Below are positions 3,545-33,020 of a stretch of 40,682 bases of DNA, piece after piece (the stretch's first letter is position 1; each line of letters opens with the position of its first letter). Origin of the DNA: an uncultured Rickettsiales bacterium (GTDB lineage: Bacteria; Pseudomonadota; Alphaproteobacteria; Rickettsiales; JABCZZ01). A model generated the notes under the pieces. It was not told the origin of the DNA, did not search any database, and saw nothing but the letters and a program-made list of their open reading frames with translations. The DNA is taken from the NCBI GenBank assembly GCA_964520155.1, contig CAZFOM010000002.1, forward strand, positions 1,703 to 42,384. Reading direction: 5' to 3'. Made by a program: the position numbers and the translations under genes.

Positions 3545-3547
3545 TGC

Positions 3548-5130: not shown

Positions 5131-5138
5131 GAGGGGCT

Positions 5139-5705: not shown

Positions 5706-5718
5706 TCACTATCGTTAA

Positions 5719-6603: not shown

Positions 6604-6618
6604 GAAAGACCTTATCTC

Positions 6619-6750
6619 GTCATCGCGAGCAATAGCTAGATGGTTTAACCTGTCATGCCGCACTTGTTGCGGCATCCAGCCGGATCCCGCAATGAATGCG
6701 GGATGACATAGAAAACTGGATCGCCACACAACTGCGCCGCTCGCAATGAC
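6619..6750. repeat. composite nested palindromic repeat element ('GTCATCGCGAGC ... CGCTCGCAATGAC' outer arms with two inner hairpin modules)
   Basis: The outer arms at 6619-6630 and 6738-6750 are reverse complements. Inner hairpins are gtcatgccgcacttgttgcggcatcc (6652-6677) and ggatcccgcaatgaatgcgggatgac (6682-6707). Related copies lie at 11104-11208, 11803-11890 and 12209-12318. Confidence 0.8.
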
Positions 6751-6793
6751 GAAACTTAATATCAGCTTTCGCTGGTATGACAACTAGTAAGGC

Positions 6794-7684
6794 TTATCGC
6801 GCCTGACTGCTTGGTGTTTCTCCCCACCCTATTCTGGTGGTGTGTTTGGTTCTTTTGGGAACATTGACTGGATCAATGGAAGTGACTTCATCTGAAAAAT
6901 TGATGCGTACATTCCCACATCCAAACCGCCCATCGCTATTAGCGCGAGGTTCTGGATGACTCAACATAAGCTCCAGACTCCCTCGCCTCCATTGCCATTT
7001 CGTTTTTCCAAGCGTCACTCGTGACTTATGCTTGTCATCCGGCGCTAAATTTTCTACGCGATCATCATCCGAATGGCTGAGTGCAGATCCCGCCAACTCG
7101 TTAGGTAATTGCACCAGTTTCATACCACCCTGTTCTGCCCGTTTGCAGAGATTATCGTCATCCCCACCCCAGGCAGAATATGCTTCATCATATCCGGTCA
7201 GTGCTTCAAAGCATTCACGCATCATCGCGATTCTTCCAGTAACACTAGGAAGGGGTTTACGATTTAATGTAGTCAAATAGTGTATAGGATTTGTTCGCGA
7301 TCGGCCAATGATGCTATTCGGATTTTTGGTGAATACCTCGTTCAGGTATCTTGAAAAATTTGGAACCACCATATTATCCGCATCGAGATTGCAGAGTATA
7401 TCCCCCGTTGCCAGCCGGTGTGCCATGTTTTTGGCGTGTGCCATTTTGAAATGCTCACCGTCATCGTACCGTGCATAGCGGATACGGCCTGATGCGACTT
7501 CCTTGGAATAATTCTGTTTGATCCACTCTGCCAGACCATCTTCACTGGTGTAATCGAGCACCACAAACTCGACATCGGGATTATCTTTTTCTGCTTCCAA
7601 GTTGTGCGGAAGGGTTTGCTGCAGATGATGCAGACGGCCTTTGCAGGTGGTGCAGTAAGAAACCTTCACAGCATAACTCCCCAA
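6794..7684 (-). CDS. GT-A fold glycosyltransferase (family 2 / galactosyltransferase-C-like)
   Basis: VSYCTTCKGR..HL, VVLDY, DxD-like NLDADN, and a GYDE..SAWGGDDDNL motif like the WGGEDDD of beta-1,4-GalT-type enzymes. Confidence 0.55.
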   Translation of the reverse strand: MGSYAVKVSYCTTCKGRLHHLQQTLPHNLEAEKDNPDVEFVVLDYTSEDGLAEWIKQNYSKEVASGRIRYARYDDGEHFKMAHAKNMAHRLATGDILCNLDADNMVVPNFSRYLNEVFTKNPNSIIGRSRTNPIHYLTTLNRKPLPSVTGRIAMMRECFEALTGYDEAYSAWGGDDDNLCKRAEQGGMKLVQLPNELAGSALSHSDDDRVENLAPDDKHKSRVTLGKTKWQWRRGSLELMLSHPEPRANSDGRFGCGNVRINFSDEVTSIDPVNVPKRTKHTTRIGWGETPSSQAR

Positions 7685-7725
7685 TTGAGGGTGAGTTTAG
7701 CAGGCTAGGGTTAAAAAGCCCTTAA

Positions 7726-9777: not shown

Positions 9778-11031
9778 ATGGCGAATATCATAGGTAGTTC
9801 AGGAAGTGATTTGCTGAACGGCACGATCAATAATGACACGATCATTGGCGGCTCCTGAGACGACTCGCTCTATGGCGGCGACGGCAACGACAGCATAAAC
9901 GGTGGTAGAGGCAGAGACCTCATCTACGCGGGATTCGGAAACGACATCATTGATGGTGGCAGCGAAGACGACGTAATTTTTGCGGAATCCGGCAATGACA
10001 CGATTGTTGGCGGCAGCGGCAATGATTTCATTTATGGAGACAGTGAAAACACGAAGCAGAATCTTGTTCTTAACGGTTCGTTTGAGATGCTGGGTTCTAG
10101 CGGCAGTGTAACGGGTTATGGTTATAGCACCCCTGTCCTTCCAGACTGGACACTCGACTCAGATCCCGCCTATGAAATGGTGAATGCCGGCTGGAATGGC
10201 ATCGCACCAAGTGATGGCACCTATTGGCTGGATATGGATGCTTCTCCGGGCAATATCAGAATATCACAGACCATCTTAGGCCCGGATGATGGCCTGTCCT
10301 ATCAACTGAGTTTTGAAGCGGCCGACTTAAATGCCGACGGCGTTTCGGCCAACAGCATTAGGGTCTACTGGGGTGGCGAATTGATAGGCTCTCTGGGTGG
10401 ATTGACCACTAACATGCTCACCTATTCGATTGAGCTAATTGGCGGCGCCGGCGATGGCTCCAACGTGCTATCGTTTGAGGCTACCGGAGATGCCGATGAT
10501 ATCGGCGCATCCCTCGACAATGTCCGCCTCTTTTCTAATGCCGATATTGATGGCAAGCATAATGATTCCATCGAAGGCGGCTCAGGCAAAGACCAAATTA
10601 CCGCTAGCGCTGGGAATGACACCGTCAATGGCGGATCCGACGACGACTTTATTAACGGCGGTACCGGCAATGATAGCCTCATGGGCGGTTCGTCCGGAGC
10701 GGATATCATCATAGGTGATTGGGGCGCTGACACGATGAACGGCGGCTCCGGAGCAGACACATTCGTCTATCGGTCGTATGAAGATTCTAACACACCAGCA
10801 CGCGACCTGATCATCGGATGGGATGCAAATGACATCTTTGATCTGGCGAACTACACTGCTTTCGACTTTGGCTTTAACAACATCGCGTTCGGCGCAGGAA
10901 GTGGAAGCACACTAGGCTACACGTATGTTTCCGGTAACACGATTATTAAAGCCGATCCATTCGTCGCGGATTTCACCATCGAACTCCAGGGCATCCACAA
11001 CCTTATCAATGCCGATTTCATCTACGTTTAA
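9778..11031 (+). pseudogene. RTX (hemolysin-type Ca2+-binding repeat) secreted protein gene interrupted by an in-frame TGA at 9856-9858; the intact downstream ORF is 10087-11031
   Basis: The ATG at 9778 is preceded by GGAGAAGG. The frame reads MANIIGSSGSDLLNGTINNDTIIGGS*DDSLYGGDGNDSINGGRGRDLIYAGFGNDIIDGG... and continues into the 10087 ORF. Central NGSFE... beta-jelly-roll-like domain. C-terminal GGxGxD repeats and a serralysin-type T1SS tail (DTFVY...D.I.G.D..D.FDL). Confidence 0.7.
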
Positions 11032-16713: not shown

Positions 16714-17760
16714 GTGCGGTATTTCGGGATCATCGTTGCATTGCTATTGGGTTTGGGACTAAGCGCCTGCGCCACCCCGCACGAACAACCGTACGCGAAA
16801 AACACCCTCTCCCCCCAACTCATTGGCACGGAAACCCTCAAAACCGGCGACAATACCAAGCTGCCGATCAAGGTGTGGATGCCAGAGAAAAAACCCACCG
16901 CGATCATCGTCGCGTTGCATGGGTTCAATGATTACAGCAATGCGTTTGCAATTCCGGCAAAACGTTTAAGCGAATCGGGTGTCGGGGTGTATGCGTTTGA
17001 CCAGCGCGGATTCGGTCGCAACCCGCAGGCGGGATTGTGGGCAGGCACGCCAAACTTGACCGCCGATCTTGCCGATATGGTGGAAGCCGTTAAAAGAGTA
17101 CACCCAAACACACCTCTGTATATTTTGGGCGAAAGCATGGGCGGGGCCGTTGCAATTTCCGCGCTGGCACAACCTGACTTCCCGAAGGTGAATGGACTGA
17201 TTCTGGTTGCTCCCGCTGTGTGGGGTGATGATACGATGAACAGTTTTTATCGTTTGTCACTGTGGGTGCTCGCGCACATGGTTCCGGATAACACTGCAAC
17301 CGGACGCGATCTCAGGATTCTCGCCTCGGACAATATCCCTATGCTGCGCGAAATGGGGAAGGATCCGTATGTTCTGAAATCCACACGTATCGACGCGGTT
17401 TACGGCATGGTGGGGCTGATGGATACGGCCTATACCCACGCCGAAAATCTCGATGTTCCTGTATTGCTCTTGTATGGTGCGAAAGATCAGGTGATCCCGC
17501 CGCTGCCGATCAAAGAGGTGTCGAAGAAGCTGCCGCAAACAGACAAAGTGGCGCTCTATCCGCTTGGGTATCACATGTTGCTGCGCGACTTAAACGGACA
17601 CCTGGTCACGAACGATATTCTTCACTGGATCCGCTCCAAACACACGCCCCTGCCTTCGGGATACGAAATGGATCCACAGCGCTTTGTTGCAAAAAAGGCA
17701 TTGCACGAGGAAGTCGTGAACTCTACGGTGAGTGAGACGGTTCGCCCTAACAAGCGATGA
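16714..17760 (+). CDS. alpha/beta hydrolase (lysophospholipase/monoglyceride-lipase-like) lipoprotein
   Basis: GESMGG nucleophile elbow and HGFNDYS. The lipobox GLSAC follows VRYFGIIVALLLGLG. The GTG at 16714 with an upstream AGGA is preferred over the ORF-track TTG at 16630. Confidence 0.75.
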   Translation: MRYFGIIVALLLGLGLSACATPHEQPYAKNTLSPQLIGTETLKTGDNTKLPIKVWMPEKKPTAIIVALHGFNDYSNAFAIPAKRLSESGVGVYAFDQRGFGRNPQAGLWAGTPNLTADLADMVEAVKRVHPNTPLYILGESMGGAVAISALAQPDFPKVNGLILVAPAVWGDDTMNSFYRLSLWVLAHMVPDNTATGRDLRILASDNIPMLREMGKDPYVLKSTRIDAVYGMVGLMDTAYTHAENLDVPVLLLYGAKDQVIPPLPIKEVSKKLPQTDKVALYPLGYHMLLRDLNGHLVTNDILHWIRSKHTPLPSGYEMDPQRFVAKKALHEEVVNSTVSETVRPNKR

Positions 17761-17960
17761 GGTGAGAGCAATCTCACCGTAAAGGGAATCAGGTGCGTGA
17801 ATATCCTTAAGATACTAACAAATCCTGAGCTGTGCCCGCAACTGTAATCAGCGAGTGTGTCTGCACTATGCCACTGGGACGCCGGATCCAACAATACGGA
17901 ACCGGAACACTGGGAAGGCCGCAGACAAGCGATGACCTGAGAGTCAGGAGACCTGCCGTC
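17761..17960 (+). promoter_or_regulatory. cobalamin (AdoCbl) riboswitch
   Basis: AAAGGGAATCAGGTGCG, GCTGTGCCCGCAACTGTAA, GCCACTGGGA, GGGAAGGC and the B12 box AGTCAGGAGACCTGCC. It lies directly upstream of a TonB-dependent receptor. Confidence 0.85.
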
Positions 17961-18060
17961 CATGTGTCACGCGAGCTGGTGTTGAACGGGGTCATTCAGT
18001 CAGTCACGGATTGTCCATACGCGGTGACATGAACACGAACACGACGTATGGAGTCTATTC

Positions 18061-19872
18061 ATGAAACTATCTTTATCCGCTGCATTGCTATGCAGCGCCC
18101 TGCCGCTTGCGGCGTCTGCTTCTCCCCTCTCGCTGGTGATCACCCCCACTCGAACCGAAACGCCGATCGCGCAGATCGGCAGCAGCGTGTCGGTGCTCAC
18201 TTCGGCTGATCTCGAGCGGCTGCAACTTCCAACCGTGCGCGACGCACTCGCGCATGTGCCAGGCGTGTCGCTTGCCAGTAACGGAGGCACCGGACAAACC
18301 ACTTCCGTGTTTATCCGCGGCGCCAAATCCGAACACACGTTGGTGCTGGTGGATGGCGTGCCGGTAAACGATCCGTCCTCTACTACCAATTCCTATGATT
18401 TTGGACGACTATCCACCAGTCACGTTGAGCGGATCGAGGTGTTGCGCGGAAGCCAGAGCGTGCTGTATGGGCCTGAAGCGATTGGCGGCGTGATCAATAT
18501 CATCACCAAACGCGGTACGGATAAACCGGCATTTAACTCGAGCGCCGAATATGGATCAGATAACAGCTATCAGCTTTCAACCGGCGCGCGCGGTGCAGTA
18601 GATCAGCTTCGCTACTCCGCCAATGTGACACATCGCCATACCGACGGCGTATCCGCGTTCAACTCACGGCGCGGTGGACTGGAAGAAGATGGCGATGAAA
18701 CCACGACTTACTCTGGCCGTCTGGATGCCGATATCTCCGACGCCCTGCGCGCCTATACGACCGGACGTTACACGCGCGGCTATACGGAGTTCGACGATTT
18801 CGGCACCGATGCCGATAACGATGCCAAGTCCAATGAGCTTAGTTGGCGCGGGGCGGGTGTGGCAACGCTTTTAGATGGAAAATGGTCGCAGGAACTCGGA
18901 CTTTCGTATCTCAACACCGGACGCTCCAGCACCTCGTCCTTTGGCACATTTCGCTATCAGGGAAAGCGCGTGGGTGCTGACTGGGTACACACGCTTACCC
19001 CCGTCCAGAATCATGTGATCACAGCAGGGCTTGAAACCGCGGAAGAAACGTTTTCTACCGATTTTGATACCAGCCGTTCAGTGCGCAATCATGCGATCTT
19101 TGTTCAGGATCAGTGGAACGTCGTGGATTTGCTCTATGTGACTACGGGTGCGCGACTGGACAAGCACGACGAATATGGCAGCGAATGGACATACCGCATC
19201 GCTCCCTCTTACCTGATTGAATCCACTGGTACGCGACTCAAGGCGAGCATTGCCAACGGTTTCAAAGCCCCTTCCCTGTTTCAACTATTCTCATTTTTTG
19301 GTAATGCTGCACTCAAGCCGGAAAACAGCGATAGTTTCGATGCAGGATTCGAGCAATCGCTGCTCAATGGATCGGTGCAATTCGGTGCTACCTATTTTCG
19401 TCTTACAGTGGATGATCTGATTGATTATGATTTTGCCGCTAACCGGTATATCAATACCGGAAAAACGCAATCCCAGGGGGTTGAGAGCTTCATCCGCTAT
19501 GCGCCTATGCCCTCGCTGACACTCGCACTCAACCATACCTACACGAAGGCGGAAGACCGCATCACGAAAGCGGATCTGCTACGCCGTCCGAAACATACAT
19601 TCTCTGGTGATGTAACCTGGCAACCGCGCGACGATATTCGGCTCGGCGTGAATGCCACCTATCAGGGAGTGCGCGAAGATATCAATCTGGCGTTCAACCG
19701 CACGCGCATGGGGGGATATCCCCTGCTCAATGTCACGGGCGACTGGAATCTTAATTCCCGTTTCACGCTGTATGGCCGTCTGGAAAATCTGCTCGATCGG
19801 GAATACGAAAATGTCTTCAGCTACGGCGCACGCGGACTTTCCGCCTTTGCCGGTATCCGCGCGGAGTATTAA
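18061..19872 (+). CDS. btuB: TonB-dependent outer-membrane receptor, vitamin B12 transporter BtuB-like
   Basis: Signal peptide, plug domain (ITPTRTETP.....SVSVLT..DLER), C-terminal aromatic residue (...GIRAEY). It follows a B12 riboswitch. Confidence 0.85.
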   Translation: MKLSLSAALLCSALPLAASASPLSLVITPTRTETPIAQIGSSVSVLTSADLERLQLPTVRDALAHVPGVSLASNGGTGQTTSVFIRGAKSEHTLVLVDGVPVNDPSSTTNSYDFGRLSTSHVERIEVLRGSQSVLYGPEAIGGVINIITKRGTDKPAFNSSAEYGSDNSYQLSTGARGAVDQLRYSANVTHRHTDGVSAFNSRRGGLEEDGDETTTYSGRLDADISDALRAYTTGRYTRGYTEFDDFGTDADNDAKSNELSWRGAGVATLLDGKWSQELGLSYLNTGRSSTSSFGTFRYQGKRVGADWVHTLTPVQNHVITAGLETAEETFSTDFDTSRSVRNHAIFVQDQWNVVDLLYVTTGARLDKHDEYGSEWTYRIAPSYLIESTGTRLKASIANGFKAPSLFQLFSFFGNAALKPENSDSFDAGFEQSLLNGSVQFGATYFRLTVDDLIDYDFAANRYINTGKTQSQGVESFIRYAPMPSLTLALNHTYTKAEDRITKADLLRRPKHTFSGDVTWQPRDDIRLGVNATYQGVREDINLAFNRTRMGGYPLLNVTGDWNLNSRFTLYGRLENLLDREYENVFSYGARGLSAFAGIRAEY

Positions 19873-20711
19873 TGATAAAGTACCTGCTTGCAGCCTGTGT
19901 AACCGGATTTGTTCTTACTTCACACGCACAGGCTGCAAGTGTACGGGTCGCATCGGCCAATCTCTGCGCGGATCAACTACTCATTGAAATGGCGCAGCCT
20001 GAACAGATTGCGGCGGTGAGTCATTTCGCTACGGATCCTCTGTTATCAGTCGAATACGAATCCGCGAAGTCTCTACCTTCCATTCGTGGCACGGTGGAGG
20101 AGATGGTTCGGCTCAAACCGGATGTCGCGCTCGTGGGTCGCACACAGATTCCAAAATCCATGCAGCCTGTGCTTGCGCCCACGCGCATCGTGGAAATTGG
20201 TATTCCCACGACGATTACTGAGGTGGAAAACCAGATCCGGCAGATGGGAGAGCTGCTAGACAGACCCGAAATTGCAAAACGCCTGATCGCGCGGATGCAG
20301 GCGCGTCTGATCCAAACCCGATTGCGCAGCCGCGCACTCACTTTTGTGCCGCGCGTGCTCGTCTATCATCATCACGGCTATACTGAATCTTCCGACTCGA
20401 TACTCGCCTCCCTCCTTCCTTATGTGGGTGCGCAACTGTACACGACCGATGCGCATGTGACACTGGAACAGCTCGTTGCGGATCCGCCGGATCTTATTAT
20501 CTATGCATACACGCGCGATGCTTCGCCTGCACTTGGCAACATTCCACTGTCGCATCCGGTTTTTCGGGAGTGGAAACCGACGGCGTTTATGGCTATTTCT
20601 CCGGCGCTGCTCATGTGCAATAACCATCACATCGCAGATATTGCGAGCCAGATCATGGATCATCTGGAAATGCTTGAGCCACCCACACCTAAATTCGCTA
20701 TGCTCCCATGA
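19872..20711 (+). CDS. btuF: periplasmic substrate-binding protein of a cobalamin/siderophore-type ABC importer (BtuF-like)
   Basis: Signal peptide ...SHAQA and a class III PBP-like sequence. The start overlaps the btuB stop (TAATG). The assignment is partly by operon context. Confidence 0.65.
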   Translation: MIKYLLAACVTGFVLTSHAQAASVRVASANLCADQLLIEMAQPEQIAAVSHFATDPLLSVEYESAKSLPSIRGTVEEMVRLKPDVALVGRTQIPKSMQPVLAPTRIVEIGIPTTITEVENQIRQMGELLDRPEIAKRLIARMQARLIQTRLRSRALTFVPRVLVYHHHGYTESSDSILASLLPYVGAQLYTTDAHVTLEQLVADPPDLIIYAYTRDASPALGNIPLSHPVFREWKPTAFMAISPALLMCNNHHIADIASQIMDHLEMLEPPTPKFAMLP

Positions 20712-21694
20712 TGTCGCTGCGCACCCCACTCATAGCACTCGTATGCATCACGATTCTCGTGAGCGCGCTGTCACTTCTGATTAGCGATACGCCGTCTCTT
20801 ACGCATTTCGGATTTGCAGGTCTGGACTACGCCATCGCATCCACTATCGTCATGGAACTGCGACTCCCGCGTCTGCTCGTGACACTCCTGACCGGCGCAA
20901 GCCTTGGCATGGCTGGTGCGGCATTACAGGGGTATCTGCGCAATCCGCTAGCCGAACCGAGCCTGCTTGGTATTTCCAACGGTGCGGCGCTGGGAGCGGT
21001 GCTCGTATTTTATTCCGGCCTTGCCGCAACCCATGCATTGCTGCTGCCTGCCTCGGGGATTGCCGGCGCCTGTGTGTGCGGCATCCTCGTCTATCTGCTA
21101 TCCGGCCGAAGCGGGCATTCGTTATCCACGATACTCGCCGGTATTGCCTTATCGAGCCTTTTGGGCGCGCTGATTGCCGTCCTGTTGAATCTTGTGCCCA
21201 ACCCCTACGCGGCGCTAGAAATCGTCCACTGGCTGATGGGATCGGCAAGCCAGACCAGCATGACACAAGTACTGCTTGTTGCGCCTTTTGTGCTGGTGGG
21301 TATGTGGGTGCTGCTCATGAGTGGGAAAGCCCTTGAAGCACTGAGCCTGGGCGAAACGGTTGCAGCCTCGCTCGGGGTGAGTCTAAGGCGAACACAATTT
21401 CTCATACTTACTGGCACTGCACTTACCGTTGGTGCATGTGTATCCATCACCGGTAGTATCGGGTTTGTGGGATTGATCGTGCCGCACCTGCTCAGGCGCT
21501 TCGTCCACCACTCGCCCTTTCATCTCTTATGGGCGTCGGCGCTGGGCGGCGCAATCCTGCTCACGCTATCAGACATACTCGTGCGACTCATCCCTACCAG
21601 CGGCACCGAACTGAAACTCGGTGTGGTCACCGCACTCATCGGGGTACCGTTTTTCTTTCATCTCATTCGATCTCGCGCGAAGGAACTCGTATGA
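20708..21694 (+). CDS. btuC: FecCD-family ABC permease (BtuC-like)
   Basis: 328 aa, polytopic, with LRLPRLL, GASLG.AGA.LQ and GFVGLIVPHL motifs. Confidence 0.85.
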   Translation: MMSLRTPLIALVCITILVSALSLLISDTPSLTHFGFAGLDYAIASTIVMELRLPRLLVTLLTGASLGMAGAALQGYLRNPLAEPSLLGISNGAALGAVLVFYSGLAATHALLLPASGIAGACVCGILVYLLSGRSGHSLSTILAGIALSSLLGALIAVLLNLVPNPYAALEIVHWLMGSASQTSMTQVLLVAPFVLVGMWVLLMSGKALEALSLGETVAASLGVSLRRTQFLILTGTALTVGACVSITGSIGFVGLIVPHLLRRFVHHSPFHLLWASALGGAILLTLSDILVRLIPTSGTELKLGVVTALIGVPFFFHLIRSRAKELV

Positions 21695-22437
21695 ACCTGC
21701 GCGCAGAATCCATCACCCTCACACGCCATCAACGGACGATTCTAAACCGTGTATCGCTCTCGGTGCGAGAAGGTGAACTGGTCGCAATGGTGGGGCCAAA
21801 TGGTGCGGGGAAATCCACCCTACTGCGGGTACTAAGTGGCATCAACGCGGCTGATCAGGGAAGCATGACACTCGATGGTTCGGCTCTCAACCCCAAGCAT
21901 ATTGCCTATGTCGGTGACACGCGACGGGTGGAATGGTCGCTTTCCGCGCGTCAGGTGGTGGAGCTTGGCAGGTTGCCCCATCAATCCCTGTTTCGACGCC
22001 CCAGCAAAGAGGATGAACAAGCCGTGGAGGAAGCACTTACCACTACCCATACCACCGCACTTGCGCATCGCGACTATCATGCGTTATCGCACGGAGAACA
22101 GGCGCGCGTAATGCTCGCACGCGCGCTGGCGACCCGTCCGCAATTTCTGTTGCTCGATGAGCCGCTCTCGGGTCTTGATCCCAAATATCAGATTGAGATG
22201 ATGCAACTGCTCCACGCTATGTCCCAAAACGGAACGGGTATTGTTATTGTATTACACGATATCAGTTTAGCGTTGCGATTTGCTTCCCGCATCGTCGCGG
22301 TAAAAGAGGGAAAGATTCTGGGCGATGATGTTCCGGCAAAACTCATCACCCGACAATTGCTGCGCGAACTGTTTGATCTCGATGCCGCAATCGGCCATGT
22401 GCATGGCGTGCCGTTTATTCTTCCCATTAGTACATAG
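21691..22437 (+). CDS. btuD: ABC transporter ATP-binding protein (BtuD/FecE-like)
   Basis: The start at MNLRAESI overlaps the btuC stop (ATGA). Walker A GPNGAGKST, signature LSHGEQARV, Walker B LLLDEP. Confidence 0.85.
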   Translation: MNLRAESITLTRHQRTILNRVSLSVREGELVAMVGPNGAGKSTLLRVLSGINAADQGSMTLDGSALNPKHIAYVGDTRRVEWSLSARQVVELGRLPHQSLFRRPSKEDEQAVEEALTTTHTTALAHRDYHALSHGEQARVMLARALATRPQFLLLDEPLSGLDPKYQIEMMQLLHAMSQNGTGIVIVLHDISLALRFASRIVAVKEGKILGDDVPAKLITRQLLRELFDLDAAIGHVHGVPFILPIST

Positions 22438-25032: not shown

Positions 25033-25593
25033 GTGGTTGTTTTGAGTAAAATATATACCCGCGGCGGGGATAAAGGGAAAACGTCCCTGGTGGATGGTGC
25101 CCGCGTGTCCAAGCATCATGTGCGTGTGGAAGCCTACGGTGCCATCGATGAAACCAACGCCGCCATCGGTGTGGTTCGGCTCTACACCAAGGGCAAGAAT
25201 GATGCGATGCTTGCGCGCCTCCAGAATGATCTTTTCGATCTCGGTGCCGATCTCGCCACGCCCCATTCTGCTAAAATGAAAACCGCACTACGCATCGTCG
25301 AGTCGCAGGTAAAGCGGCTGGAAACCGAAATCGACGCCATGAACGCCACCCTGAAACCGCTCAATTCGTTCGTGCTGCCTGGCGGTTCAACCGTAGCCGC
25401 ATATCTGCATGTGGCGCGCACCATCTGCCGGCGCAGTGAACGCGCCATCACTGCGCTCATGGAAGTCGAATCCATCAATCCATTGGCGCTGCAATACACC
25501 AACCGTCTTTCGGATCACCTCTTTGTCATGTCGCGTTATGTGAACGACAAGGGCAAGAAAGACGTGTTGTGGGTTCCAGGACTCAACCGGTAG
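25033..25593 (+). CDS. ATP:cob(I)alamin adenosyltransferase, PduO/MMAB type
   Basis: [15 protein letters not shown]-terminus, 186 aa. Confidence 0.9.
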
Positions 25594-25600
25594 TGAGCAT

Positions 25601-26350
25601 ATGAAGATACTCGTCCCCGTCAAACGCGTCGTGGATTACAATGTGAAGATCCGCGTCAAGAGCGATCAGTCCGGCGTGGAACTCGCCAATGTGAAAATGT
25701 CCATGAATCCGTTTGACGAAATTGCCGTCGAGGAGGCCGTCCGGCTGAAAGAAAAAAACATCGCTAAGGATATAGTGGTTGTGGCCATAGGATCGGAGGC
25801 ATCGCAGGAAACATTGCGCACAGGGCTAGCACTCGGTGCCGATCGTGCTATTCACATCGTCACCGAAGGGGTGAGTGATTCGCTTGCCGCAGCAAAACTA
25901 CTCGCAACTGTGGTAAAGTCGGAAAATCCGGATCTTGTGATTCTGGGTAAACAAGCCATTGATGATGATTGCAACCAGACCGGCCAGATGCTCGCAGGCC
26001 TTCTCGGCTGGCCACAGGCAACCTTTGCCTCCAAACTGGAAGTGGCCGATGGAAAGGCCACCGTCACGCGCGAGGTGGATGGAGGGCTTTCAACCGTTGA
26101 ATTGACCCTTCCAGCTATTGTGACTACCGACCTGCGCTTAAACGAGCCACGCTACGCCTCGCTTCCCAACATCATGAAAGCACGGAGCAAGCCGCTGGAG
26201 AAGAAAACCCCAGAAGAGCTGGGTGTGTCGCTTGCAACGCGGCATAGTATACTGAAGGTCGAAGAACCGAAAAAACGGCAAGGCGGAAAGAAAGTAAAAG
26301 ATGTTCCCGAGCTTGTGGATAAATTGAGGAACGAAGCGAAAGTCATTTAA
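25601..26350 (+). CDS. etfB: electron transfer flavoprotein subunit beta
   Basis: [19 protein letters not shown]..., 249 aa, full length. Confidence 0.95.
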
Positions 26351-26395
26351 CGCTCATATTGTACACTTATTGATTTATCACATACACATCAATGT

Positions 26396-26426
26396 GTTAA
26401 TTCCACAAACCTGCTCTGGAATTAAC
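26396..26426. promoter_or_regulatory. perfect 10-bp inverted repeat GTTAATTCCA-N11-TGGAATTAAC (candidate operator) upstream of the curlin gene
   Basis: 26396-26405 is the exact reverse complement of 26417-26426. The right half plus 2 nt (tctggaattaac) recurs at 9717-9728 upstream of the RTX gene. Confidence 0.35.
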
Positions 26427-26474
26427 CATATGTTACGATTGTGTTAAAGTTGTTAACAATAGTTACCTTTTATG

Positions 26475-26503
26475 TTGCTCCGTATTTTACAGCGTGCTAT
26501 AAG
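26475..26503 (+). promoter_or_regulatory. candidate sigma70-type promoter for the curli operon
   Basis: TTGCTC-N17-TATAAG, about 70 nt upstream of the ATG. Sequence match only. Confidence 0.25.
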
Positions 26504-26573
26504 ACGCAGCCTTATCGTATATTAACTATTTATTAACTTTTTACTTACTCTTTTTTAACTTTACGAGGTTCAC

Positions 26574-28139
26574 ATGAAAACGTTTTCACTTCTTTCGACG
26601 GTGAGCGCTGTCGCGATACTGATCGCAGCCAATGCTCATGCACTCGATAACTTTGTCAATATCGACCAAGTTACGCAAAATAACGCTGCCAGCGCGGTAC
26701 AGAGCGGTTCGGAGAACCAATCCCGTATCTATCAAAAAGGCGATGTATTCAACAAGTCCTTCAGCACCCAGATCGGCGAACAGAACCAGTATCTCTCCTC
26801 GCAGAACGGCTTCAACAATGAAGCAACGGGCTATGCTGCTGGTGTCGCAAACGAAGCTATCATTGATCAGACCGGTGCAAACCATAAGTCGATCAACTCC
26901 GTTCAGGGCGATAATAACGACATCGTAAGCGTGCAGACCGGCGGTGATCATTATTCCCAGATCACGCAGAACGCCAATTCCGCTATCGCCAACGTTCGTC
27001 AGGAAGGCGCAAACCAGCAGACATTCCTGTTTCAGGGCGGTATAGAAAACCGTGCATTCCTCTCGCAGGAAAATGCTGCTAACTTCATCAATGGTTATCA
27101 AGATGGTATCCGCAACCGTGTTACCGCCGCTCAGACCGGCAACTTACAGAAGCTGAGCTTCGATCAGCGCGGTGTCGAATCCAACATCAACGTCACCCAG
27201 TCCGGATCGGATCACAGCGCGTTCGTTGGCCAGAATGGCAGCAACGGCACGGTCAATCTCGGTCAGGCAGGCCTGCAACATAATGCATATGTGACGCAGG
27301 GCGGCTCTGAGAACGTGGCAAACCTGAACCAGCAGAATCAGGGTAATGGCCTTGTTGGCAATCAGGGTGGTTTCAAAAACACCGCAAACGTGAACCAGAT
27401 TGATCAGTTCCAGTATATTACCTTCTCGCAAACGGGTAATAAGGAGATCTTGAACTCCAACCAGTCCGGTATCTCGAATAAAGCACACGTCAATCAGGTT
27501 GGTAACAACGGTGTGTTCAACCTTGAGCAAGTCGGCAACAACAACAAAACGGTTGCCGACCTGCAGGCCGGCCACACTACGTTCGCTCCGACCGTGGACT
27601 ATCCATTCGGCGTGAAATCCACCAACGTGAAACAGGTGGGTGGCTCGAACTACGCGCAGGTGACTCAGCGTGGCGGCGATCCGCTCGCAGACATCACCCA
27701 GACCGGTGTCAACCATGCGGCGTTCCTCTATCAGGAAGGAAACACCAACACCTATCTGCTCAAGCAGAACGGAGATGGTAACTTTGCCAATGGTTATCAG
27801 TCGTTCCAGAACAACCTCGCCAACGTGACGCAGGACGGGTTCTGGCACAAATCCACCATCGAGCAGACCGGCCGTGAAGGCACCGCGCTCGTGCTTCAGA
27901 CCGGTGGCAATCAGGAAGCCTATATCTACCAGAAAGGAAAGCTGCAGGTCGCAGAATCCAATCAGGAAGGCTATGGCAACAAGCTGATCGTCGCGCAGGA
28001 TGGATTGAACAACTACACCAAATCCTTCCAGCGTGCAGAAGGCAACTTCGCCAACGTAAGTCAGACCGGTACGACCGATGTGACTTTCATCAATCAGCTC
28101 GACTCGTTCAATACGATCAACGTGTCACAAGCTGACTAA
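26574..28139 (+). CDS. csgA: curlin-repeat protein, major subunit candidate (CsgA-like, ~22 repeats)
   Basis: Signal peptide ...ANAHA, then consecutive ~22-aa units with Q-x-G-x-x-N-x-A-x-x-x-Q periodicity. The composition is rich in Gln, Asn and Gly. It is followed by csgF and csgG homologues. Confidence 0.8.
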   Translation: MKTFSLLSTVSAVAILIAANAHALDNFVNIDQVTQNNAASAVQSGSENQSRIYQKGDVFNKSFSTQIGEQNQYLSSQNGFNNEATGYAAGVANEAIIDQTGANHKSINSVQGDNNDIVSVQTGGDHYSQITQNANSAIANVRQEGANQQTFLFQGGIENRAFLSQENAANFINGYQDGIRNRVTAAQTGNLQKLSFDQRGVESNINVTQSGSDHSAFVGQNGSNGTVNLGQAGLQHNAYVTQGGSENVANLNQQNQGNGLVGNQGGFKNTANVNQIDQFQYITFSQTGNKEILNSNQSGISNKAHVNQVGNNGVFNLEQVGNNNKTVADLQAGHTTFAPTVDYPFGVKSTNVKQVGGSNYAQVTQRGGDPLADITQTGVNHAAFLYQEGNTNTYLLKQNGDGNFANGYQSFQNNLANVTQDGFWHKSTIEQTGREGTALVLQTGGNQEAYIYQKGKLQVAESNQEGYGNKLIVAQDGLNNYTKSFQRAEGNFANVSQTGTTDVTFINQLDSFNTINVSQAD

Positions 28140-28163
28140 ATCGAAGACGTGAACCTCTTTGGT

Positions 28164-28191
28164 CGGGGGATGTGCAATGGCGCATCCCCCG
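28164..28191 (+). other. GC-rich intercistronic hairpin between the two curlin genes
   Basis: cgggggatg - 10-nt loop - catcccccg (9-bp perfect stem), with no U-run. Confidence 0.4.
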
Positions 28192-28227
28192 ATAAAGAAG
28201 ACAAACACTAGCGCATCATCACAGATC

Positions 28228-28830
28228 ATGAATAAACTGCTTATCCTCCCACTCGCATTCCTGGTTTCCAGCCCTGCTCTTGCACTGAATAATGCCGTGC
28301 AGATTGATCAGGTGGTGGGTAACGGAAATGTTGTGCAGGCCGCGCAGGCGGGTGAGCAAAACACGCTCATCGTGCAGCAGGGCGGTGTGGACGGATTTAT
28401 TGATGCAAGCCAGTCAGGCACCGGAAATAATCTTGCCCTGAATCAATTTGGAACCGACAACGAAATGTATGCCTACCAGCGCGGTGAGCGCAATGTGGGA
28501 AGGCAAACGCAGAACGGCGAAGCAAATATCTCCATCCTCTATCAGCGCGGCGAGGACAATTACTCGCTTCAGAATCAGGATGGTTTCAATAACTATGCAT
28601 TCACTTATCAGAAGGGTGATCGTAACGTTTCCGAGACGATCCAGATCGGAAACGATAACATCGCCACCAAAGTACAGATCGGCGATGATCTGGAGCATAA
28701 AGTAACACAAGAAGGAAACGGAATGTCTGTGAGAATTTTGCAACAGACCGTCAATCTCGATAAGGATTACGAGCACTTGAAGATGCTCGAACAAGAGCTG
28801 GGCGGAATCACGATTTCCGTCAACCAATAG
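28228..28830 (+). CDS. curlin-repeat protein, second subunit (CsgB-like nucleator candidate)
   Basis: The start is set at MNKLLILPLAFLVSSPALA (signal peptide). About 7 curlin-type units follow (e.g. NNLALNQFGTDNEMYAYQRGER) and then a non-repeat C-terminal tail. Confidence 0.75.
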   Translation: MNKLLILPLAFLVSSPALALNNAVQIDQVVGNGNVVQAAQAGEQNTLIVQQGGVDGFIDASQSGTGNNLALNQFGTDNEMYAYQRGERNVGRQTQNGEANISILYQRGEDNYSLQNQDGFNNYAFTYQKGDRNVSETIQIGNDNIATKVQIGDDLEHKVTQEGNGMSVRILQQTVNLDKDYEHLKMLEQELGGITISVNQ

Positions 28831-28882
28831 CAGTCGGGCGGGCTTAATCCTTCTTTAACGCATCGTATGTAAGGTTAAGTCT

Positions 28883-29290
28883 ATGAAAACGCTTTCCATC
28901 ATTACCGTATCTTTGATACTCGGCACAGCTTCCTTGGCGAACGCGAGCGAGCTGCGCCACCAATTCACCAATCCGGCATTTGGCGGGTTTCCGGCAAATG
29001 GCGCCTATTTCCTGCAAAACGCACAGGCGCAGAACCAGCATAAGGAAGATACTGGCCGCAATACACCATCGCAGAACTTTGCGCAGACGATTACCAGCAG
29101 CCTGCTCAACCGCATTGCGTTCAATATCGCGGATCAGATCTACGGAGAGAACGCAAAAGACTCCGGCCGTTTCGTGATTGATGATACCCTGCTGGAGTTT
29201 AATCGCGTCAATAATCAGGTGATTGTGAACATCACCAACTCCACTACCGGCGAAAAAACCACCATCGAATTACCGGTAACCGAATTTTAA
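28883..29290 (+). CDS. csgF: curli assembly/transport component CsgF
   Basis: The mature N-terminus SELRHQFTNPAFGGFPANGAYFLQNAQAQN closely parallels E. coli CsgF ([27 protein letters not shown]). Confidence 0.85.
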   Translation: MKTLSIITVSLILGTASLANASELRHQFTNPAFGGFPANGAYFLQNAQAQNQHKEDTGRNTPSQNFAQTITSSLLNRIAFNIADQIYGENAKDSGRFVIDDTLLEFNRVNNQVIVNITNSTTGEKTTIELPVTEF

Positions 29291-29326
29291 CGCATCGGCG
29301 TTATACCAAACAGGTAGGGAGTGCAT

Positions 29327-30478
29327 ATGCGTTATATACTGATGATTTCTGCAGCATTGTTTCTTGCAAGCTGTACCAGCGGCGGCATGTCGGGCAGTGC
29401 GTTCACATCTGAAGCCAAGGTCGCGGATAAAACCAAAACCTTTGAAATGCTCAAAACCATGCCGGTGGCAGCACAGAAAGTGGTGGTGTCTGTCTATAAT
29501 TTTGAAGACCAGACCGGTCAGCATAAACCCGATGATAATTCCCCGCAGTATTCCCGCGCCGTCACGCAAGGCGGTCTGGCCATACTGAATAAAGCGCTGC
29601 TGGATGCCGGCAATCATGGATGGTTTACGGTGATCGAGCGCGGCGGGCTGCAAAATCTCCTTCAGGAACGCCAGATCATTCGCTCCACCCGCGATCAGTA
29701 TCGCCTGCCGGACGGACGCAAACTCCCTGATCTTGGGCCTCTGCTTTATGCCGGCCTGTTGCTTGAAGGCGGTATTGTCTCCTATGAATCGAATATCATG
29801 ACGGGCGGTATTGGCGCACGTTACTTGGGTATCGGCGGTAGTACTGAATACCGTCAGGATATTGTAACGGTCTATCTGCGCGCTATCAGTGTGCAGACCG
29901 GCGAAGTGCTGGTATCCGTCAACACGGCCAAAACGATTTTCTCCTCCGGTGTCTCTGGCGGTGCCTATAAATATGTCGCCGTGGACAAGCTGCTCGAAAT
30001 CGAATCGGGATTCACTGTGAACGAACCCCCGCAGTTTGCCGTGCGTCAGGCCATCGAAATGGCCGTGTATTCACTGATCATGGAAGGTGCAGAACGCAAT
30101 CTCTGGGGCTTTGCCGACGCTGCCACAGGGCAAATGCGTTTACTGGATTATATCGAAAAACGCGATGGCAGCAGACCCGTTAGCTCTACCGCGGTGGTGG
30201 AACCCACCTCCGTAAGGCCTGCAACGCCTGCTCAGGAAAACCCTCCCGCACGCGCGCCGGATCTTGCACCACAACAGCCCAATGCCAATCCGACGCTGAA
30301 TGTGCCCACGGGAAATCTGGAGCGCCAGAGCAGTAACGGGACGGTTGTCGATCCAAAAGTCGAAGAAAAAACACCCGCCACCACGACACCGGAAGTGGAA
30401 TATATGAACAACCCGAAGCGCGATAAGCTCTATTGCACTAGCGGCGGCTGTTATCCGTTTCCGCCTCCCACCCGATAA
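29327..30478 (+). CDS. csgG: curli secretion channel lipoprotein CsgG with ~110-aa Pro/Thr-rich C-terminal extension
   Basis: Lipobox LASC, VSVYNFEDQTGQ, YSRAVTQGG..IL..AL..G.FTVIERGGLQNLLQERQI. AGGGAG lies upstream of the ATG at 29327. Confidence 0.85.
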   Translation: MRYILMISAALFLASCTSGGMSGSAFTSEAKVADKTKTFEMLKTMPVAAQKVVVSVYNFEDQTGQHKPDDNSPQYSRAVTQGGLAILNKALLDAGNHGWFTVIERGGLQNLLQERQIIRSTRDQYRLPDGRKLPDLGPLLYAGLLLEGGIVSYESNIMTGGIGARYLGIGGSTEYRQDIVTVYLRAISVQTGEVLVSVNTAKTIFSSGVSGGAYKYVAVDKLLEIESGFTVNEPPQFAVRQAIEMAVYSLIMEGAERNLWGFADAATGQMRLLDYIEKRDGSRPVSSTAVVEPTSVRPATPAQENPPARAPDLAPQQPNANPTLNVPTGNLERQSSNGTVVDPKVEEKTPATTTPEVEYMNNPKRDKLYCTSGGCYPFPPPTR

Positions 30479-31855
30479 TCACTTCGCTTCTGCCAGCGGC
30501 AATTCGATAAGCACTTTAAGTCCCGGGTGGTTATCTGAGAAACTGAGTTCTCCCTGATGTAGTTTGATTGCCGCGTGCACGAGGCTCAAACCAAGGCCAT
30601 TTCCAGGCGTGCTGCGACTGGTTTCCAAGCGAAAGAATTTCTCGGTCACTTTATCATAGAACTCCGGCGGGATGCCTTTGCCCTGATCCGCAATCATGAC
30701 CTGTGCTTTCCCATTCTCCATCTGAAGCGAAATGCGTAACTGGCTCTCCGCAGGAGAATACTTGATCGCATTATCGAGCAGGTTGGCAAAGGCCTGAGAC
30801 AACAGGTGACGATCTCCCATAACCCATACCCCCGCTTGAATATCGGATTGCTCGGACATGGATTTTTCTTCGGCCACCGGCCGATATAGCTCGAGCACGT
30901 TATCGAGAATAGCAGACAGATCGCACGGCACAAAATGTTCGATCCCTGCCCCTACCTCGGCCTGCGAGATGTGCAGGATAGCGTTGAACGTGCCCACCAG
31001 ATCATCAATTTCCTGTAAACAGTGACGCAACTGCTCTGCATGTTCTTCATACGACATATCCTGTTGCAGCAGGAACTCGACGCGGTTGCGCAGTCGATTG
31101 AGTGGCGTGCGCAAATCATGCGCCACGTTGTAGGAAATATCGCGTACCCCGCCGATCAGTTCTTCGATACGGGTGAGCATCCGGTTGATGTTTTCGGCCA
31201 GATGGTCGAATTCATCGGCACTTCCAGACACCGCGACCCGTGTCTGTAATTTGCCCTGCATCACGGTTTCACATACCTGATTGACGCGCTCTAAGCGACG
31301 GTTGATCGTGTAGGAAATTAAAAAGCCGCCCAGAGAGGCAAGCAGCGCCGTGATACCAAAACAGATGAACAGTACATTGGATATTAACTCACGAATTTTT
31401 TCCTGTGCCGCGAGTTTGCGCCCCACCAGCAGAATATAACCGCGCGGCAGCGACGAATTGATCCCGATGGCTTTGTGCGCGCCGGAGCCGGTTTTCTTCT
31501 CCACCGTAAAGGTGATCCAGTCTGCCGGCTTGATCGACCCGCCTGGCCATTTCTCCAGATTTCCTGCGATGATATTCCAGTCGGAATCCATCAATAAAAA
31601 CACCTGATTGCCTTCGCGATCCTTCTCGATCAGGTGATTGATGCTCGCCGCCGTATCGCGCAGGCCTTCCCGTATGAAAGTGCGCCCGAGATCGGCAAGC
31701 TGGATGTTAATGTCGTATTTCAGCTGGCGATCCAGTTCCGCAGTAATGACCGAATAAATGATGACCAGCAGCACCGCTACCGATGCGCCAAACAACAGGA
31801 TATACAGCATCGTCAGGCGAAATGCCGCCGAATTATAGAGTTTCCCCGATTTCAT
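30479..31855 (-). CDS. sensor histidine kinase (two TM segments, periplasmic domain, HAMP, HisKA, HATPase_c)
   Basis: H-box SYNVAHDLRTPL, N-box LLDNAIKY, G-box DQGKGIP...GNGLGLS. The stop codon abuts the csgG stop codon. Confidence 0.85.
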   Translation of the reverse strand: MKSGKLYNSAAFRLTMLYILLFGASVAVLLVIIYSVITAELDRQLKYDINIQLADLGRTFIREGLRDTAASINHLIEKDREGNQVFLLMDSDWNIIAGNLEKWPGGSIKPADWITFTVEKKTGSGAHKAIGINSSLPRGYILLVGRKLAAQEKIRELISNVLFICFGITALLASLGGFLISYTINRRLERVNQVCETVMQGKLQTRVAVSGSADEFDHLAENINRMLTRIEELIGGVRDISYNVAHDLRTPLNRLRNRVEFLLQQDMSYEEHAEQLRHCLQEIDDLVGTFNAILHISQAEVGAGIEHFVPCDLSAILDNVLELYRPVAEEKSMSEQSDIQAGVWVMGDRHLLSQAFANLLDNAIKYSPAESQLRISLQMENGKAQVMIADQGKGIPPEFYDKVTEKFFRLETSRSTPGNGLGLSLVHAAIKLHQGELSFSDNHPGLKVLIELPLAEAK

Positions 31856-32532
31856 TCGCCGCCCGAAACCAGTTGATACCCCGCGCCGCGAATCGTCTTG
31901 ATCAAGGATTTCTGAAAGCCCTTATCCACTTTATTGCGCAAGCGGCTGATCTGCACATCAATCACGTTGGTTTGGGGGTCAAAATGAAAATCCCAGACAT
32001 TTTCAAGCAACATCGTGCGGGTCACAACCTGCCCTGCATTACGCATCAGGTATTCGAGCAACGCAAATTCACGGTTTTGAAGCGAAATTTCTTTCCCTTG
32101 CCGCATAACCTTGCGCGTGAGGAGATTCATGCTGAGTTCACCGACGGTGAGCACACTCTGCTCGGTGGCAGGCCCCACCCTGCGCGAGAGCACCTCGATA
32201 CGCGCCATCAGTTCACTGAACGCAAAGGGCTTTACCAGATAATCGTCCCCGCCGGCCTTAAGTCCTTTCACGCGCTCATCCACCTGGTGCAGGGCACTCA
32301 GTATTAAAATCGGATAGGTTTTTTTGGCATTGCGTATGGTTTGAATGATGGTGAGCCCATCTACTTTGGGCAGCATACGATCCACAATCAATACATCGTA
32401 TTCATTATCGAGCGCGAGATACAGCCCTGTGTTGCCATCCTCCGCGATTTCGCACTGATGCCCTGCCTCCGACAATCCGTTACGGATAAACTGCGCCGTC
32501 TCCTTGTCGTCCTCAATGATCAGCAACCGCAT
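31852..32532 (-). CDS. OmpR-family response regulator
   Basis: The start is at MRLLIIEDD, preceded by GGGGAGAG. Receiver Asp in VLIVDRMLP. Winged-helix C-terminus (LTRKV...LEYLMRNAGQVVTR...IRGAGY). ATGA overlap with the kinase gene. Confidence 0.9.
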   Translation of the reverse strand: MRLLIIEDDKETAQFIRNGLSEAGHQCEIAEDGNTGLYLALDNEYDVLIVDRMLPKVDGLTIIQTIRNAKKTYPILILSALHQVDERVKGLKAGGDDYLVKPFAFSELMARIEVLSRRVGPATEQSVLTVGELSMNLLTRKVMRQGKEISLQNREFALLEYLMRNAGQVVTRTMLLENVWDFHFDPQTNVIDVQISRLRNKVDKGFQKSLIKTIRGAGYQLVSGGE

Positions 32533-32619: not shown

Positions 32620-32901
32620 TTACTTCGCGATTTTGCCATCTTTGGTGGTGACGGTGGTGCCGTCTTTCAGCTCGTGGGTGCCATCTGGAGCTGGGGTTTT
32701 GGTGCCGTCAGCGTTCACGACGGAAACTGCATCACCAGCAACTTCCACTTTGGTGCCGTCTTTCAGCTCGAGGGTGGTCACAGCAGGAGCAGCAGCTTCA
32801 GCAGCGGCAGGAGCAGCAGCTTCGGTTTTTGCTTCTTCAGCAACAACAGCGGTGGAAAGTGCAAGGCCGGCAACAGCGGCAAGTGCGAACAGTTTGTTCA
32901 T
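32620..32901 (-). CDS. small secreted protein with Ala/Glu-rich linker and duplicated LKDGT(K/T)V motif
   Basis: The start is at MNKLFALAAVAGLALSTAVVA (signal peptide), preceded by GGAGAC. An internal 20-nt exact DNA duplication (tggtgccgtctttcagctcg) occurs at about 32655 and about 32752. Confidence 0.65.
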   Translation of the reverse strand: MNKLFALAAVAGLALSTAVVAEEAKTEAAAPAAAEAAAPAVTTLELKDGTKVEVAGDAVSVVNADGTKTPAPDGTHELKDGTTVTTKDGKIAK

Positions 32902-33020
32902 GTTGGTCTCCAAAAAAATGAGATGTTTAGGTTAAAAATGCAACCGAGTGGTTACATAGGTTCAATATAGTGCAAGAACGTAACCTGTAAATGTCATCAA
33001 CATTACAAATGTGTAATGTT

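Follow-up and report, generated by a model that had tools for sequence, protein, structure and literature searches.

A probable curli operon of the reduced alphaproteobacterial type, csgA-csgB-csgF-csgG, in an uncultured Rickettsiales bacterium

The 40,682-nucleotide stretch of DNA analysed here (hereafter the window), part of contig CAZFOM010000002.1 of an uncultured Rickettsiales bacterium, carries at positions 26574-30478 a cluster of four genes for two curlins, CsgF and CsgG. Judging from the features of the encoded proteins and their conservation, this csgA-csgB-csgF-csgG cluster is probably a functional operon for curli (type VIII) secretion, in the reduced form known from Alphaproteobacteria. 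A first-pass annotation of the window had singled the cluster out as a minimal four-gene system; the gene content it gave stands, but its unusualness does not, as this set is the published alphaproteobacterial norm and the dominant type among 83 related loci. The locus is a further case of a gene set published since 2012, found here in an uncultured lineage, and the genes it lacks are expected absences rather than new ones.

The four genes are intact and all co-directional across 26574-30478, as read from Pfam matches and the list of open reading frames (ORFs), and the Pfam matches bear out their earlier identification as two curlins, CsgF and CsgG. The operon and its leader comprise the following features (aa, amino acids; nt, nucleotides).

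26351..26573, plus strand: upstream regulatory region and 5' untranslated region, a 223-nt leader, AT-rich and with repeated TTAAC elements, aligned with relatives
26574..28139, plus strand: csgA-like major curlin, 521 aa (Pfam Curlin_rpt, E=1.9e-30)
28156..28198, plus strand: GC-rich stem-loop in the csgA-csgB spacer (folding energy, relatives)
28228..28830, plus strand: second curlin, presumed CsgB-like, 200 aa (Pfam Curlin_rpt, E=1.4e-5)
28883..29290, plus strand: csgF, 135 aa (Pfam CsgF, E=5.7e-32, 130/132 profile positions)
29327..30178, plus strand: csgG core (Pfam CsgG over 29321/29327-30478, E=3.2e-57)
30179..30478, plus strand: CsgG C-terminal extension, ~99 aa, a proline-rich linker followed by the conserved motif LYCTSGGCYPFPPP

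The coordinates agree with the previous description of a single co-directional operon with gaps of 88 nt (csgA-csgB, 28140-28227), 52 nt (csgB-csgF, 28831-28882) and 30-36 nt (csgF-csgG). For csgG we take ATG 29327 as the start, giving the 383-aa form also present in the protein collection, with GTG 29321 as the alternative, while the ORF of the second curlin opens at TTG 28159 and has its likely start at ATG 28228. The further statement that the four genes account for all ORFs of at least 60 aa in 26351-30478 holds for non-overlapping ORFs but not otherwise, since ten more lie in other frames or on the opposite strand, each overlapping the four genes; none of these ten has a family match in Pfam or NCBIfam.

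The major curlin carries a Sec signal, cleaved between AHA and LDN, and its mature form of 498 aa and 53.4 kDa contains 20 strict Q-x-G-x2-N/H motifs at a spacing of 11, 22 or 33 residues. Its repeats, of the curlin form X6-Q-X-G-X2-N-X10, amount to about 21-22 units of 22 aa, in keeping with the large amyloid client of about 22 repeats, put at 50 kDa, that had been described from the first reading. It has no cysteine and no glycine-rich N22 segment. In the second curlin, a signal peptide precedes 11-residue half-repeats and a C-terminal portion of ~45 aa that is free of repeats. The CsgB model outscores the CsgA model for both window curlins, and the two families are separable within Gammaproteobacteria only (PMC3521004); the second curlin is presumed to be the CsgB-like nucleator from its size and position only.

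Both curlins and CsgF have Sec signals and CsgG has the lipobox LASC. The N-terminal CsgG-binding segment of CsgF has the same residues as in E. coli at Q6, F7, N9, P10, F12, G13, G14, P16, N18, G19 and A20, with substitutions at F5 (to H) and N17 (to A); the roles of residues in this segment in binding inside CsgG have been described in E. coli (PMC6957492). CsgG itself matches the NCBIfam CsgG model at E=8.1e-60 and 202.6 bits, against an enterobacterial equivalog cut-off of 505, and has 38 invariant alignment columns in common with E. coli CsgG. At the channel constriction the aromatic residue is kept (F56 to Y), with N55 changed to Q and Y51 to D.

An external crevice of E. coli CsgG binds V3, Q5 and Y6 of mature CsgA, with a hydrophobic pocket formed by I121/L172/L236/W237 (PMC6957492). 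The residues of the window CsgG at these pocket positions are L/L/L/W, and the pocket tryptophan is invariant in 25 CsgG relatives. On the side of the substrate, the mature curlins of the clade open, directly after the signal peptide and without a glycine-rich N22, with an N-x-V-F-I-[D/E]-Q-V strand, which is common to the window and the related loci L090, L091, L001 and L004. The two window curlins begin LDNFVNIDQV and LNNAVQIDQV, which gives them a hydrophobic-x-Q-hydrophobic motif comparable to V3-P4-Q5-Y6 in the CsgA of E. coli. Together, the shared strand and the kept pocket make direct recognition of the curlin N-terminus by CsgG plausible.

Conservation differs strongly between the parts of the system. 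Compared with L090, identity is 70% for CsgG and 69% for CsgF, as for the housekeeping protein EtfB (69%), but 47% for CsgB and 33% for CsgA, and the number of curlin repeats varies. As far as sequences can tell, a functional system with a fast-evolving fibre subunit would show just such a pattern, which points to purifying selection on CsgG and CsgF.

No CsgE, CsgC, CsgH or CsgD was recognisable in the operon, in ~26 kb upstream or in 10 kb downstream by phmmer, profile, Pfam or NCBIfam searches, which confirms what had been noted from the sequence alone for the operon and its flanks; this absence is established for the 40.7-kb window, which is part of a contig at least 51 kb long. The profiles used were those of Pfam and NCBIfam and a self-built CsgH profile. 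When E. coli K-12 CsgE, CsgC and CsgD and three Rhizobium CsgH sequences were compared by phmmer with the six-frame translation of the window, the best match had E=0.25. The CsgH profile, iterated over the fetched related loci, recovered 16 CsgH proteins, all from Hyphomicrobiales, which served as positive control, and found no match in the window. All 147 unassigned window ORFs of at least 60 aa were also searched against Pfam and NCBIfam, and the complete lists of matches (10 and 11 families, respectively) contained no Csg family, while the larger window genes all fall in unrelated families in the profile searches.

Absences of this kind have been reported for all Alphaproteobacteria, which are without csgC, csgD and csgE (Dueholm et al. 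2012, PMC3521004). In Table S1 of that study Pseudovibrio FO-BEG1, Pseudovibrio JE062 and Methylobacterium sp. 4-46 have curlins, CsgF and CsgG only, the same gene set is found in the firmicute Halanaerobium, and CsgA homologues reach 529 residues and 22 repeats (PMC3521004). The Pseudovibrio cluster, with csgF and csgG beside three curlin genes, was described again by Bondarev et al. 2013 (PMC3806328), and a "single, minimal operon" outside Gammaproteobacteria is mentioned by Taylor et al. 2016 (PMC4838910). Across 43,279 genomes with CsgA, CsgE was found in 41,090, CsgC in 37,945 and CsgH in 1,839 (Sleutel et al. 2023, PMC10192328), therefore a few thousand genomes are without CsgE, CsgC or CsgH factors. 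The window, with curlins, csgF and csgG clustered and without csgC, csgD or csgE, falls within the reduced alphaproteobacterial definition, in which csgH is optional (PMC3521004).

The co-occurrence of these genes, which the first-pass annotation had proposed following across Alphaproteobacteria, was followed in a set of related loci, i.e., 86 fetched CsgG loci, or 83 after removal of duplicate contigs, classified with self-built profiles. Their gene arrangements were as follows.

38/83 loci: curlin(s)-F-G, as in the window
21/83 loci: F-G-curlins (Azospirillum, Roseomonas, Skermanella, others)
13/83 loci: CsgH-bearing (Methylobacterium/Methylorubrum, Microvirga, Alsobacter, Bosea), all Hyphomicrobiales
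6/83 loci: F-G only
5/83 loci: other arrangements

The window arrangement is thus shared by 38 of the 83, and CsgH occurs in the 13 given above. CsgE was found in none of the 83, a test made with the Pfam CsgE model and single-sequence phmmer in a set holding no CsgE-bearing locus as positive control. Neither CsgE nor CsgC was seen by Pfam in the 150 co-directional ORFs without assignment that lie up to 1.5 kb from the related clusters, nor among the called genes of those contigs that have precomputed Pfam matches. Two relatives, the P0004 contig (CsgG 72% identical) and L090 (70%), are fully syntenic with the window, in the order etfB, a 420-524-aa curlin, a ~175-aa curlin, csgF, csgG, a convergent histidine kinase and response regulator pair, a ~93-aa gene and ydbL/ynbE/ydbH. 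Metagenome-assembled genomes labelled Alphaproteobacteria or Rickettsiales supply the nearest CsgG relatives, and a comparison with 185,579 species-representative genomes gave a best CsgG match of 49-63% identity. In L001, the etfB and curlin genes are fragmented (4973-7541; contig suffix np1212), probably through frameshift errors, which makes the number of small curlins counted there unreliable.

Two features of the non-coding DNA bear on how the operon might be expressed. The csgA-csgB spacer contains a GC-rich hairpin of 14 bp (-33.8 kcal/mol, z=-4.9) without a U-tract, and in both L090 and L091 a hairpin of equal strength but unrelated sequence occupies the matching place. This suggests a conserved partial attenuator or 3' mRNA stabiliser that sets the ratio of CsgA to CsgB/F/G in favour of the major subunit. 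Searches of Rfam found no riboswitch or small RNA in the csg 5' region or the spacers at E<=1.

The other feature is a pair of boxes of the form TTAA-N7-TTAAC, which we take to be the CtrA consensus known from Caulobacter.

26522..26537, plus strand: CtrA-type box TTAACTATTTATTAAC (TTAA-N7-TTAAC), ending 37 nt before the csgA ATG
28844..28859, plus strand: second CtrA-type box TTAATCCTTCTTTAAC, ending 23 nt before the csgF ATG

The window has four matches to this motif at three sites, against 0.26 expected, and two of the sites are in the csg operon. The remaining site is palindromic, matching on both strands at 7710-7726, between genes for a glycosyltransferase (6794-7684, minus strand) and a class I lysyl-tRNA synthetase (7726-9372, minus strand). 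The box at the csgA position is also found in L090 (6635) and L091 (6161), and that at the csgF position in L090 (8543), L001 (7545), L029, L034 and L038. When the shorter form TTAA-N7-TTAA was sought within 250 nt upstream, 16/79 curli operons had it, where composition-matched shuffles predict ~2 sites, compared with 16/433 (3.7%) operon-first control genes of the same loci (Fisher p=2e-6). None of nine loci from bins not labelled alphaproteobacterial had a CtrA-type box. Searching the literature on CtrA in connection with curli or hfaA, we came across no paper that ties CtrA to curli. Based on these counts we offer, as a tentative suggestion that is itself rather doubtful, that CtrA, the master regulator of the cell cycle, controls the CsgD-less curli operons of Alphaproteobacteria; the box before csgF may mark an internal promoter. 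If true, the amyloid fibres would be cell-cycle-timed or cell-type-specific, like the anchoring of the Caulobacter holdfast, in contrast to the stationary-phase curli of enterobacteria, which are driven by cyclic di-GMP and CsgD.

Taken together, these features can be put into a working model of the system. All four products would be exported via Sec, with CsgG lipidated, as read from their sequences, and CsgG, presumably nonameric like its E. coli counterpart, would form a channel in the outer membrane. Into this channel CsgF would insert its conserved N-terminus, which acts as second constriction and surface adaptor. CsgG may then recognise the mature curlin N-terminus directly via the retained hydrophobic pocket, unfolded subunits would diffuse in without a CsgE cap, and their folding and polymerisation on CsgB/CsgF at the surface would pull curlins outward. 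By default we assume that periplasmic solubility would be maintained by fast export, general chaperones and proteases and slow self-nucleation, with no dedicated CsgC or CsgH. Subunit ratios could be set within the single operon by the csgA-csgB hairpin, perhaps together with an internal start ahead of csgF, and transcription would depend on a factor other than CsgD, for which CtrA, acting via the boxes before csgA and csgF, would be the best candidate.

How such a client is kept soluble and gated without CsgE or CsgC had been raised by the first-pass annotation as an open mechanistic question, and the gap is real, but it is not new, having been raised in 2012. In E. coli, overexpression of CsgG rescues a csgE deletion, so that CsgE raises efficiency and is not strictly required, and CsgG binds the CsgA N-terminus directly (PMC6957492). 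According to the same authors, diffusion is how the repeats get into the chamber when CsgE is missing, and this is inefficient (PMC6957492); the route does work in E. coli, but less efficiently per channel. The rescue of the csgE deletion makes CsgE-free secretion mechanistically feasible rather than paradoxical. That other proteins must take over the missing Csg roles was already remarked in 2012 (PMC3521004).

Several points weigh against this account of a functional and truly reduced system. The E. coli crevice residues T31 and G32 are not conserved in the window CsgG, which leaves direct N-terminal recognition at plausible. The csgA-csgB hairpin could instead be a REP-like (repetitive extragenic palindromic) or processing element. 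The CtrA-box motif is short and the loci in which it was counted are phylogenetically non-independent, and most of the F-G-first loci of the Rhodospirillales type have no box upstream of their first gene. Finally, the visible 40.7 kb belong to a contig that is at least 51 kb long, so a distant CsgH/CsgC/CsgE-like gene could lie elsewhere. This last point feeds the view that the system is not truly minimal and that dedicated but unrecognised CsgH/CsgC/CsgE-like folds are encoded elsewhere in the genome, helped by the fact that CsgC and CsgH share <20% identity, such that divergent members can escape sequence profiles (PMC4838910). We consider this unlikely, given that CsgH, where present, always adjoins curlin genes (PMC3521004; fetched loci), that in whole-genome surveys with hidden Markov models every alphaproteobacterium came out negative for CsgC and CsgE, as did Pseudovibrio and Methylobacterium 4-46 for CsgH (PMC3521004), and that no relative of the window carries a CsgE/CsgC/CsgH-like gene within about 10 kb. 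Another way in which a missing factor could be made good was proposed in the first-pass annotation, namely by the extended tail of CsgG. Such a tail might act as a tethered CsgE replacement (nine per channel, for substrate retention or capping) or as a peptidoglycan anchor of the channel. The window tail is a non-conserved proline-rich linker ending in the Cys-loop motif YCTSGGCYPFPPP, and the tail exits the CsgG core beside the W260 crevice. Its end motif, (L/V)YC(T/G)xGGC(Y/F)P(F)PPP, is kept among orthologues sharing 49-56% CsgG identity while the linker drifts, and was seen in the window, L001, L010, L014, P0009, P0012, P0015, P0021, P0054, P0067, P0080 and P0108. Tails longer than 60 aa are confined to loci without CsgH, those of CsgH loci spanning 9-47 aa, but phylogeny confounds this correlation, as the CsgH loci are all from Hyphomicrobiales. 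SPOR, TonB_C or BON domains occupy the same position in other CsgG orthologues; SPOR and TonB_C point to cell-wall anchoring, and the domains as a group suggest envelope anchoring more than substrate capping. Among the 86 CsgE-less loci the tail spans anything from 3 to 232 aa and is <=20 aa in 22, 12 of which are also without CsgH, so the tail cannot in general make up for the lack of CsgE. That it fills this role is improbable, although a lineage-specific role is possible.

The second candidate substitute of the first-pass annotation was the two-component system that lies convergent to csgG and comprises the following features.

30479..31855, minus strand: histidine kinase, apparently of the CusS/CopS subfamily, convergent, its stop codon abutting the csgG stop
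31852..32532, minus strand: OmpR-family response regulator, apparently of the CusR/CopR/HprR subfamily, ATG start at 32532
32620..32901, minus strand: 93-aa secreted CopK-like protein, with weak CopK similarity and orthologues in relatives
33001..33018, no strand: perfect palindrome CATTACAAATGTGTAATG, a putative CusR/HprR-type box directly upstream of the sigma-70-like promoter of the 93-aa gene

If this pair controlled the curli operon directly it would stand in for CsgD, and several observations speak for such a link. Orthologous pairs (response regulator 75-80% identical, histidine kinase 49-61%) lie beside csg in the P0004 contig, L090, L001 and, rearranged, L091; in Rhizobium tumorigenes a curlin-csgH-curlin cluster faces a convergent but unrelated pair of histidine kinase and response regulator; and in A. 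tumefaciens FeuPQ affects the expression of a curlin and csgH (bioRxiv 10.64898/2026.01.20.700542). The best families of the window pair are nonetheless those of heavy-metal CopS/CopR, CusR and HprR, although both matches are below cut-off (TIGR01386, 194.6 bits against 292.55; TIGR01387, 258.2 bits against 279.2). The box CATTACA-N4-TGTAATG, presumably an HprR/CusR site, is perfect at 33001-33018 and kept in L090 and L091. It fronts the co-travelling CopK-like gene, and no other box of this type was found elsewhere in the window or near csgA when up to 3 mismatches were allowed. L001 and L090 share etfB on the other flank, so the linkage may be plain synteny, and most csgFG loci have no adjacent pair of this kind. 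The two-component system, which looks like one of the CusRS/CopRS/HprRS type, is thus poorly supported as the proposed substitute; direct control of the curli operon by it is very unlikely, the histidine kinase probably being a mere neighbour outside the curli machinery. The 93-aa gene is likely to be its direct target, and the 32620-33018 module together with the regulator and kinase genes looks like a self-contained metal or oxidant sensor, conserved in L090 and L091. Further still from our reading of a functional curli operon is the idea that the csg products anchor another surface structure, as HfaA/HfaB do at the Caulobacter holdfast, without free curli fibres. The host is alphaproteobacterial with CtrA-type boxes at the operon, and CsgG has a weak match to the HfaB model (E=7.9e-7), but this amounts to 28.5 bits (cut-off 300) compared with 202.6 on the CsgG model; a true CsgF is present, the curlin has ~22 canonical repeats and there is no HfaD-like gene nearby. 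We regard this as the least credible of the alternatives and as highly improbable.

Other features surround these genes. The csgG and histidine kinase stop codons converge with 0 nt between them (30476-30481), and overlap by 4-8 nt in the P0004 contig, L090 and L001; as this leaves no room for terminators, transcriptional collision or antisense read-through is possible. A terminator-like hairpin stands between the 93-aa gene and the response regulator gene. The 93-aa secreted protein was also considered as a CsgC/CsgH/CsgE-like factor and ruled out, its only matches being weak ones to CopK (E about 0.003-0.1). In L008, a plasmid of Rhizobium tumorigenes, positions 2953-6378 hold a curlin-csgH-curlin cluster without csgF and csgG and, behind it, a kinase and regulator pair in convergent orientation; the layout is alike but the regulators are unrelated, with the kinase only 31% identical to that of the window. 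On the other side of the curli operon, which directly follows it, lies etfB (25601-26350), an order also found in the P0004 contig, L090 and L001; etfB has no adjacent etfA, and no EtfA domain is encoded anywhere in the window.

Further upstream, a cob(I)alamin adenosyltransferase gene is located at 25033-25593, and a cobalamin riboswitch (RF00174, 95.5 bits, 17721-17974) precedes genes for a TonB-dependent receptor and BtuF/C/D-like ATP-binding cassette (ABC) proteins (18061-22437). An RTX-type HemolysinCabind protein is encoded at 10087-11031, and in L091 a HemolysinCabind gene (5179-5970) lies directly upstream of csgA. Clues to the host within the window are its genes for class I lysyl-tRNA synthetase, HIG1 and zf-CHCC; the 40.7 kb contain no ribosomal or transfer RNA.

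The locus itself matters little, as it is the published alphaproteobacterial curli set found again in an uncultured lineage. The question it restates is how an amyloidogenic protein of ~50 kDa and ~22 repeats is exported free of CsgE, CsgC and CsgH without periplasmic damage, for which cultured bacteria of the same architecture, such as Pseudovibrio, Methylobacterium sp. 4-46, Azospirillum, Roseomonas and Skermanella, are better suited. What the window adds are cheap new hypotheses, i.e., the CtrA-type boxes, the hairpin after csgA, the curlin N-terminal strand with the CsgG pocket, and the variation of the CsgG tail.

Compared with the seven-gene csg system of enterobacteria, the window has no CsgE, no amyloid-inhibiting chaperone (CsgC or CsgH) beside the curlins and no CsgD, a regulator of the LuxR/FixJ type, and one co-directional operon takes the place of the divergent csgBAC and csgDEFG operons of E. 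coli. It shares with the curli of E. coli and Salmonella the CsgG lipoprotein channel, the CsgF plug segment, two Q-x-G-x2-N curlins and a pocket for the curlin N-terminus. Unlike in E. coli, the window curlin is without a glycine-rich N22 and has four times as many repeats, and the constriction residues Y51 and N55 and N17 of CsgF are replaced. The neighbouring regulators resemble CusRS/HprRS of E. coli and CopRS-CopK of Cupriavidus in the probable subfamily of the kinase and regulator, in the type of box and in the small periplasmic CopK-like target, but differ from CusRS/CopRS modules in scoring just below the NCBIfam subfamily cut-offs and in the weakness of the CopK similarity.

Within the Alphaproteobacteria, the Hfa anchor of Caulobacter (HfaA/HfaB/HfaD) is likewise a pair of CsgA-like and CsgG-like proteins for a surface structure; however, it is without CsgF, has a short curlin-like protein and includes HfaD, whereas the window CsgG fails the HfaB model. 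The csgA-csgH-csgB-csgF-csgG clusters of Hyphomicrobiales (Methylobacterium, Microvirga, Alsobacter, Bosea, Rhodopseudomonas) have the same CsgF/CsgG core without CsgE and CsgD, and several of these loci have CtrA-type boxes upstream of the first curlin, as in the window, but they differ from it in having CsgH, a CsgC-like chaperone, encoded between the curlins and in their short CsgG tails of 9-47 aa. The window most closely matches the clusters of Pseudovibrio FO-BEG1/JE062 and Methylobacterium 4-46, where curlins, csgF and csgG form one cluster without csgC, csgD, csgE or csgH and the curlins are long and multi-repeat. It departs from them in its distant sequences, the best CsgG identity to any species-representative genome being 49-63%, in having two curlins where Pseudovibrio has three, and in a CsgG that bears a ~100-aa tail with a Cys motif.

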